Position numbers and translations under genes: made by a program
The notes under the pieces: model-generated
What the model saw: only the letters and a program-made list of their open reading frames with translations
Database searches by the model: none
Told to the model about the DNA's origin: nothing
Shown: positions 22,318 through 23,195 of the stretch, one piece after another
Layout of the letters: every line of letters starts with the position of its first letter
Numbering within the stretch: position 1 is the stretch's first letter
Sequence record: PQ249397
Strand: one strand, 5' to 3'
DNA: 64,000 nt
From: Escherichia phage Pu-Krd-SF3

Positions 22318-22715
22318 TGTCAAATATTAATAAGCTTTATTCTGACATTGACCCGGAAATGAAAATGGATTGGAACAAAGACGTTTCCAGATCGCTTGGA
22401 TTAAGGTCAATTAAAAACAGTCTTTTGGGAATTATTACAACAAGAAAAGGTTCAAGACCGTTTGACCCTGAATTTGGATGTGATTTATCAGACCAGCTTT
22501 TTGAAAATATGACTCCTCTTACTGCTGACACAGTTGAGCGCAATATTGAAAGCGCAGTAAGAAACTATGAACCACGTATTGATAAATTATCAGTTAATGT
22601 GATACCCGTTTATGATGATTATACTCTAATAGTAGAAATACGCTTTTCGGTCATCGATAACCCTGATGATATTGAGCAGATAAAACTGCAACTGGCTTCC
22701 AGTAATAGGGTATAA
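22317..22715 (+). CDS. 25: Baseplate wedge protein gp25
   Basis: 132 aa as in T4; ATGA overlap with gp26. Confidence 0.85.
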   Translation: MSNINKLYSDIDPEMKMDWNKDVSRSLGLRSIKNSLLGIITTRKGSRPFDPEFGCDLSDQLFENMTPLTADTVERNIESAVRNYEPRIDKLSVNVIPVYDDYTLIVEIRFSVIDNPDDIEQIKLQLASSNRV

Positions 22716-22741
22716 TGCTTCACGTTAAAACGTGGTATAAT
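22716..22741 (+). promoter_or_regulatory. MotA-type middle promoter of uvsY (T4 oriF region)
   Basis: TGCTTCA MotA-box-like at 22716-22722, 13-bp spacer, TATAAT at 22736-22741; palindrome CACGTTAAAACGTG between them. Confidence 0.5.
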
Positions 22742-22781
22742 GAATCTAAGTCCATCCAATAACAATTGAATAGAGAACAAT

Positions 22782-23195
22782 ATGAGATTAGAAGATCTTC
22801 AAGAAGAATTGAAGAAAGATGTGTTTATAGATTCGACTAAATTACAGTATGAAGCAGCTAATAATGTGATGTTATATAGTAAATGGCTTAATAAGCATTC
22901 AAGTATTAAAAAGGAAATGCTTAGAATTGAAGCACAGAAAAAAGTTGCTCTTAAAGCTAAATTAGACTACTACTCGGGACGAGGAGATGGTGATGAATTT
23001 AGTATGGATCGTTACGAGAAATCAGAAATGAAGACAGTTCTATCAGCTGATAAGGATGTTTTAAAGGTTGATACCTCGTTACAGTATTGGGGGATTTTAT
23101 TAGATTTCTGTAGCGGAGCTCTTGATGCTATTAAATCGCGTGGATTTGCTATTAAGCATATTCAAGACATGCGGGCATTTGAGGCTGGAAAATAA
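22782..23195 (+). CDS. uvsY: Recombination mediator UvsY
   Basis: 137 aa as in T4. Confidence 0.9.
   Translation: MRLEDLQEELKKDVFIDSTKLQYEAANNVMLYSKWLNKHSSIKKEMLRIEAQKKVALKAKLDYYSGRGDGDEFSMDRYEKSEMKTVLSADKDVLKVDTSLQYWGILLDFCSGALDAIKSRGFAIKHIQDMRAFEAGK

Follow-up and report, generated by a model that had tools for sequence, protein, structure and literature searches.

The DNA between gene 25 and uvsY in Escherichia phage Pu-Krd-SF3 is very probably the orthologue of the T4 uvsY middle promoter PuvsY and thus of the replication origin oriF, a reading from sequence that is well supported because MotA, AsiA, RNase H, gp59 and UvsW as well as the promoter of oriG are found in the same genome. As such, the element is already known, namely the ordinary PuvsY/oriF of T4 in a close relative. 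The window, by which we mean the whole analysed stretch of 64,000 nucleotides (sequence record PQ249397), is 100% identical at positions 1-25000 to positions 32001-57000 of the Tequatrovirus Escherichia phage Pu-Krd-SF4 (PQ759884.1), and the anatomy of the site, the trans-acting genes and the sequence identity with T4 could be read directly from the sequences.

Promoter anatomy at the gene 25/uvsY junction

Middle promoters carry a MotA box, (a/t)(a/t)(a/t)TGCTT(t/c)A, centred near -30; a very good sigma-70 -10 follows 12 +/- 1 bp downstream, and there is no -35 element (PMC2988021). Between gene 25 and uvsY, the plus strand of the window reads AGGGTATAATGCTTCACGTTAAAACGTGGTATAATGAATCTAAGTCC (Table 1). 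The box starts with TAA (22713-22715), which is at the same time the stop codon of gene 25, and direct reading bears out the arrangement that had been predicted ahead of uvsY, consisting of TGCTTCA (22716-22722), a spacer of 13 bp (22723-22735) and TATAAT (22736-22741). The TGn of the extended -10 is formed by T22733, G22734 and G22735, and the initial transcribed sequence of PuvsY is AAGTCCATCC. With its MotA box, the spacing to the -10 and the MotA and AsiA proteins encoded by the phage, the site belongs, as judged from its sequence, to the middle promoters. A generic sigma-70 scan for -35/-10 pairs did not pick the uvsY site, which fits the presence of a MotA box in place of a -35 element. 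It can further be seen that GGTATAATG occurs twice at a distance of 25 bp. The first copy (22709-22717) covers the stop codon of gene 25 together with the A/T-rich 5' portion of the MotA box; the real -10 is the second copy (22734-22742).

Table 1. Positions of the promoter, of the genes it is associated with and of related elements. Positions are those of the window unless another record is named.
Feature	Position	Strand	Basis
Late-promoter consensus TATAAATA upstream of gene 26	21662..21669	+	
Gene 25 (baseplate wedge)	22317..22715	+	ORF list; annotation of matching phage records
MotA box TAATGCTTCA	22713..22722	+	10/10 against the consensus (PMC2988021); same in T4
Interrupted inverted repeat CACGTT-AA-AACGTG (6-bp arms, 2-bp centre)	22721..22734	.	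Sequence; folding; conservation
Extended -10, TGG-TATAAT (TGn and perfect sigma-70 hexamer)	22733..22741	+	Sequence; middle-promoter anatomy (PMC2988021)
Predicted transcription start (A, 7th base past the -10)	22748	+	T4 PuvsY start 115371 transferred via alignment
Leader (34 nt) and first uvsY codons, counterpart of the T4 oriF DUE/R-loop zone	22748..22800	+	
Single CCAATAACAA copy	22756..22765	+	Alignment with T4
uvsY (recombination mediator), gene served by the promoter	22782..23195	+	ORF list; annotation
uvsW (helicase), convergent to uvsY	23928..25439	-	ORF; annotation; role from PMC3016281
Late-promoter consensus TATAAATA upstream of uvsW	25469..25476	-	
Gene 3/gene 2 spacer promoter ATAATGCTTTATAACTGTTGGTGGTATAAT (perfect MotA box and -10), antisense into gene 2	61146-61185	-	
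MotA-like activator	PQ759884.1 5537-6172		Annotation
AsiA (anti-sigma factor)	PQ759884.1 7992-8264		Annotation
RNase H (rnh) homologue	PQ759884.1 19388-20305		
gp59 helicase loader	PQ759884.1 20896-21549		
srd/modA spacer module TGCTTTA-N-GGTATAATGAATCTAAGTCCTTCCAT, antisense into modA	T4 11885; PQ759884.1 ~156439	+; -	

The motif TGCTTCA-N11-14-TATAAT is present twice in the 64-kb window while 0.04 occurrences were expected from shuffled sequence, and none of 100 shuffles contained two or more; it hence lies far beyond chance. The second occurrence (61723-61746) precedes gene 1 and corresponds to the known T4 promoter P1. One could nevertheless ask whether a chance resemblance to a middle promoter, devoid of function, has been picked up at uvsY, for which nothing speaks except that the genome is generally A+T-rich. 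Given the frequency of the motif, the identity with a promoter that was experimentally mapped in T4 and a position that is conserved across many genera, the likelihood of this explanation is practically negligible and we regard it as effectively refuted already.

Conservation of the promoter across T4-like lineages

Across 16 distinguishable lineages of uvsY promoters, a GCT(T) box is kept 18-20 nt upstream of a perfect TATAAT, and a promoter of the form GCT(T)-N-TATAAT stands in the corresponding location ahead of uvsY in at least 14 other T4-like lineages. These include Mosigvirus, Karamvirus, Gelderlandvirus, Winklervirus, Marfavirus, Dhakavirus, Gualtarvirus and others, and the distance from box to hexamer is constant wherever the uvsY promoter is kept. 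In several genera, the conservation comprises TATAATGG, followed by N3-5 and the start of the uvsY leader, (A)AG(G/T)TCC(T)T(C/T)C. This conserved leader start (window 22742-22781) is often trailed by an A/C-rich tract resembling AATAACAA. No MotA-type promoter was seen at the position upstream of uvsY in RB49-like phages (Krischvirus), which are not known to carry motA.

Sequence comparison with T4 PuvsY and oriF

The locus is 97.6% identical to T4 across 1.2 kb, and the order of genes 26, 25, uvsY, uvsY.-1 and uvsY.-2, with uvsW convergent, is that of T4. An alignment with T4 oriF, named in the original prediction as a way of checking it, was made with window positions 22660-22900 and revealed zero differences at 22710-22765 (-38 to +18) and one 10-bp copy fewer than in T4. 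Two substitutions are located upstream of -38, and past the 10-bp indel the identity resumes through the start of uvsY and reaches at least +143.

In T4, transcription from PuvsY starts at 115371 (PMC2988021, Table 1), and two origins are driven by PuvsY and P34i (PMC2988021). The T4 record places the rep_origin feature of oriF at 115321 and hence 50 nt downstream of the PuvsY start, using the same convention by which it places oriA relative to P56. When transferred to the window, this point (+51) falls on 22788 if the alignment is followed and on 22798 if the distance is used. The supplementary data of a T4 dRNA-seq preprint did not list a matching TSS. According to the literature, the minimal oriF of about 100 bp consists of a MotA-dependent promoter and an A+T-rich unwinding element (DUE), the exact borders of which we took from a single review (PMC3016281). 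In the DUE, the transcript persists as an R-loop; RNase H probably processes it, and it serves to prime the leading strand (PMC3016281). Heterologous unwinding elements can substitute for the DUE, R-loop formation does not depend on a specific sequence, and the R-loop is unwound late in infection by UvsW (PMC3016281). Autonomous replication of plasmids and bubble arcs in 2D gels have been demonstrated for T4 only (PMC3016281). The earlier statement that the uvsY middle promoter of T4 is oriF, with an R-loop serving as primer, therefore agrees with the T4 record as well as with both publications, in which oriF is described as a MotA-dependent middle promoter with a downstream unwinding element and a primer R-loop (PMC3016281, PMC2988021).

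The site shares with T4 oriF, also called ori(uvsY), its position between gene 25 and uvsY, the MotA box, the spacer, the TGn, the -10, the first 18 transcribed bases, the uvsY sequence beyond the indel and the trans-acting genes, whereas T4 differs by two copies of CCAATAACAA and a 5' UTR of 44 nt as compared to one copy and 34 nt here. Of the same class is P34i of T4 oriG, or ori(34), a MotA-dependent middle promoter with exact TGCTTCA and TATAATGG that gives rise to an R-loop primer transcript. It differs in that it is located within gene 34 in antisense orientation, displays no general similarity 3' of the -10 and is not A+T-rich in its first 60 nt. A promoter transcript that persists as an RNA-DNA hybrid and from which RNase H makes the leading-strand primer, as for the T4-type origins, is further known from ColE1 RNA II, the mitochondrial heavy-strand origin and E. 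coli oriK (PMC3016281). The latter are unrelated in sequences and proteins, and unlike them the T4-type origins require a host polymerase modified by MotA/AsiA as well as the phage replisome, with UvsW shutting them off.

Trans-acting genes and proposed mechanism

The accessory machinery, consisting of RNase H, gp59 and UvsW, is entirely encoded in the genome (PQ759884.1 and window; Table 1), uvsW 1.2 kb downstream, and the oriG promoter P34i inside gene 34 of PQ759884.1 is identical to that of T4. For the present phage, we infer the start of transcription, the R-loop and the firing of the origin from T4. In the middle mode, RNA polymerase with AsiA-remodelled sigma-70 would be recruited by MotA on TAATGCTTCA and TGG-TATAAT, and transcription of the uvsY mRNA would begin at about A22748. 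By analogy to T4, a fraction of the transcripts would stay hybridised in the A+T-rich region from 22748 to ~22800 as a persistent R-loop. Trimming of its RNA by the phage RNase H would leave a 3'-OH from which the leading strand would be primed rightward, i.e., in the + direction, and gp59 would load the gp41/gp61 primosome onto the displaced strand. Late in infection, the origin would be switched off both by the shutdown of the middle promoters and by late UvsW that unwinds the R-loop. Transcripts from the late promoter of gene 26 probably read through the uvsY promoter region, since a scan of the + strand between this promoter (21662) and uvsY found no terminator-like site.

In the window, uvsW (503 aa) and uvsW.1 (80 aa) are separate ORFs on the minus strand (23672-25439), with a GGGC-UUCG-GCCC hairpin between them at 23916-23927. 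The T4 reference record (RefSeq NC_000866.4) has one fused CDS of 587 aa for uvsW/uvsW.1, together with a note on 'sequence discrepancies'; the fusion is due to a difference in the T4 sequence (GCTTAT-TAA versus GCCCTTATAAA).

Copy number of the leader repeat

The sole difference from T4 within the origin region concerns CCAATAACAA, which is tandemly duplicated in the uvsY leader/DUE of T4 and present as one copy in the window. Since scans of IMG/VR had yielded few Tequatroviruses (5 loci and 11 loci), the GenBank phage collection was used for population counts, and window positions 22700-22830 were compared with its 50,697 phage records. Among the 499 matching records, 484 (~97%) were at least 95% identical to this single-copy query and 15 fell into the band of 90-95% identity. 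As this band is the expected effect of a 10-bp gap, we read it as the two-copy state, and the one example listed for it is a T4 record, with a match that spans 141 instead of 131 bases. All sampled sequences, including T2, have one CCAATAACAA copy. Judging from these records, one copy in the leader is the norm for the genus, from which T4 departs.

It could be argued that the site is only the uvsY middle promoter, in that the shortened leader with its one CCAATAACAA copy no longer sustains a persistent R-loop and hence provides no origin. The 10 bp deleted relative to T4 do lie inside the counterpart of the DUE, all functional origin data come from T4 and therefore from the rare two-copy state (15/499 records), and the thermodynamic signals described below are weak. 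From our point of view, this possibility is nonetheless unlikely, as the R-loop at oriF forms without the need for a specific sequence and the DUE is swappable for heterologous elements (PMC3016281). Moreover, the other 40+ nt of the leader region equal those of T4 and are equally A+T-rich, with a value of 0.70 for +1 to +50 in the one-copy as in the two-copy version, and the single-copy form is the ancestral-looking norm of a genus that includes T2. Because the DUE reportedly acts independently of its sequence, no loss of function would be expected for the one-copy leader, and we retain the orthology with T4 oriF as the preferred reading.

Composition and thermodynamic signals

The first ~50 transcribed nt (22748-22800) have an A+T content of 0.70-0.74, compared to a window mean of 0.64, and on nearest-neighbour energies they range at the 89th percentile of duplex stability in the window, towards the less stable end. 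The advantage of the RNA:DNA hybrid over the DNA:DNA duplex in the region downstream of the promoter is at the 15th percentile of the window. In a ranking of the 58 mapped T4 middle promoters, PuvsY comes 19.5th for A+T, 15th for duplex instability and 11th for hybrid advantage, and P34i (oriG) comes 50.5th, 44th and 9th, respectively. We hence dismissed duplex and hybrid energies as evidence for or against an origin, their signal being mild and the origin promoters not being discriminated. Since measures of composition and stability do not separate the origin promoters, it is homology to T4 that carries the origin claim.

Although oriF is known to lie near a transcription switch (PMC3016281) and the GC skew is compatible with this, the skew changes sign several times at 16-32 kb and tracks gene orientation, and we did not consider it diagnostic. 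At the RNA level, positions 22690-22790 fold no better than shuffled sequence (z = -0.02), and the region 22500-23300 gave no match in Rfam.

Elsewhere in the window, a tandem array of ATTACCTTCAACTAAAATAGTAGC with a period of 24 and 4.5 copies is located at 57613-57720, about 100-200 bp from the counterpart of T4 oriE (79355, inside gene 5), and probably represents the oriE iterons. A 288-bp tandem repeat of two copies that are 78% identical (26459-27037) possibly corresponds to domains that are repeated within a coding gene of the hoc/inh region.

The inverted repeat in the spacer

The original prediction also described a palindrome in the spacer. The inverted repeat is present (Table 1), but it is not wholly inside the spacer, as its outer pairs are formed by the CA at the end of the MotA box and by the TG that is part of the TGn of the extended -10. 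As single-stranded DNA, it folds into a 5-bp stem with a 4-nt loop (-3.9 kcal/mol). The window contains 162 repeats of this kind (6-bp arms, loops of 0-4), compared to 129 +/- 16 in first-order Markov simulated sequence, and one of such size has a chance of ~3% per promoter-sized slot; the inverted repeat alone is unremarkable.

One could speculate that CACGTT-AA-AACGTG is a working element, be it a protein site, a cruciform that tunes the promoter or origin, or a hairpin in the RNA of late transcripts that read through. As single-stranded DNA, the 26-nt promoter is more stably folded than its shuffles (z = -3.5; 2 of 200 as good), and a hairpin at this place would be transcribed late, as the scan of the + strand from the late promoter at 21662 up to uvsY found no terminator-like site. 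The arms are invariant across all Tequatroviruses sampled, which is uninformative because the whole promoter is invariant within the genus, while the centre is TATA instead of TTAA in many of them, a change that shortens the arms to 5 bp. Klebsiella phage Roth20 and its relatives carry a different, unrelated repeat with 6-bp arms, ACTCTA-GCAG-TAGAGT, at the identical offset in the uvsY spacer, which could be taken as a further hint towards function. However, 14 of the 16 uvsY-promoter lineages, i.e., all except Tequatrovirus and this one Klebsiella-phage lineage, lack a 6-bp-arm spacer repeat and yet keep the promoter, and the two other PuvsY-like modules of T4 (see below) have no such inverted repeat either. 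In addition, the outer two pairs (CA/TG) are fixed by the MotA box and the TGn, the folding in RNA context equals that of shuffles, and there is no T-run for termination. A working element is thus very unlikely, and the palindrome is probably incidental, a by-product of the promoter elements. Since the repeat is not kept where the promoter is kept, the emphasis that had been placed on it finds no support.

PuvsY-like modules and the AGT(T)CC motif

A scan of the whole T4 genome for AGT(T)CC preceded by a good -10 recovered four sites with a MotA-type box and a perfect TATAAT, namely PuvsY, P34i, 11885 (+) and 75988 (+). Three of them, PuvsY and the sites at 11885 and 75988, have in common the module GGTATAATG(A/G)(A/G)TCTAAGTCC(n)T(T)CCA(T)T, which extends over the -10 element and the first ~15 transcribed bases, and this three-copy PuvsY-like module is real. 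The gene 3/gene 2 spacer copy is almost the same as PuvsY from -16 to +9 (GTGGTATAATGnnTCTAAGTCC) and 100% conserved in T4, where its -10 is at 75988 on the plus strand. Of 504 related (Tequatrovirus) records, 502 carry it with at least 95% identity, and in nearly all records listed no annotated feature lies beneath the match. The copy in the srd/modA spacer equals PuvsY in 20 of 20 bases across the -10 and start region. Both antisense modules aim into the 3' end of the neighbouring gene, and both sites are missing from the 58 T4 middle promoters that have been listed (PMC2988021). A gp3-based search for the antisense promoter in other genera returned only near-identical or very distant relatives.

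Within the 58 mapped T4 middle promoters, AGT(T)CC between -6 and +25 is restricted to PuvsY (115371) and P34i (153011), at a chance expectation of ~0.017 per promoter. This short core lies near +2 to +10, and the uvsY leaders of several other genera conserve it as well. As a motif shared by oriF and oriG it was rejected, as it was defined post hoc and is weak. When the initial transcribed regions were aligned locally without bias, P34i was not ranked near PuvsY and no wider similarity emerged. It is conceivable, if quite improbable, that PuvsY belongs to a small repeated module in which the initial transcribed sequence would aid the R-loop through pausing or hybrid anchoring, and that the antisense copies would be promoters or cryptic origins.

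Implications

If that were true, an initial sequence of the AGT(T)CC type would constitute a sequence rule for R-loop origins, and the two antisense copies would represent unrecognised promoters or cryptic origins. By simple composition and stability, the two proven R-loop origin promoters are not distinguishable from the other 56.

The re-identification of a textbook element is mainly of use for annotation, and in Tequatrovirus deposits the region is mostly unannotated or just labelled 'promoter'. In view of the sequence identity with T4, 'probable oriF', as originally proposed, appears to be a fair label for it. Lastly, the counts from the genus suggest that T4, the strain behind all work on oriF, carries an atypical 10-bp duplication in its unwinding element.
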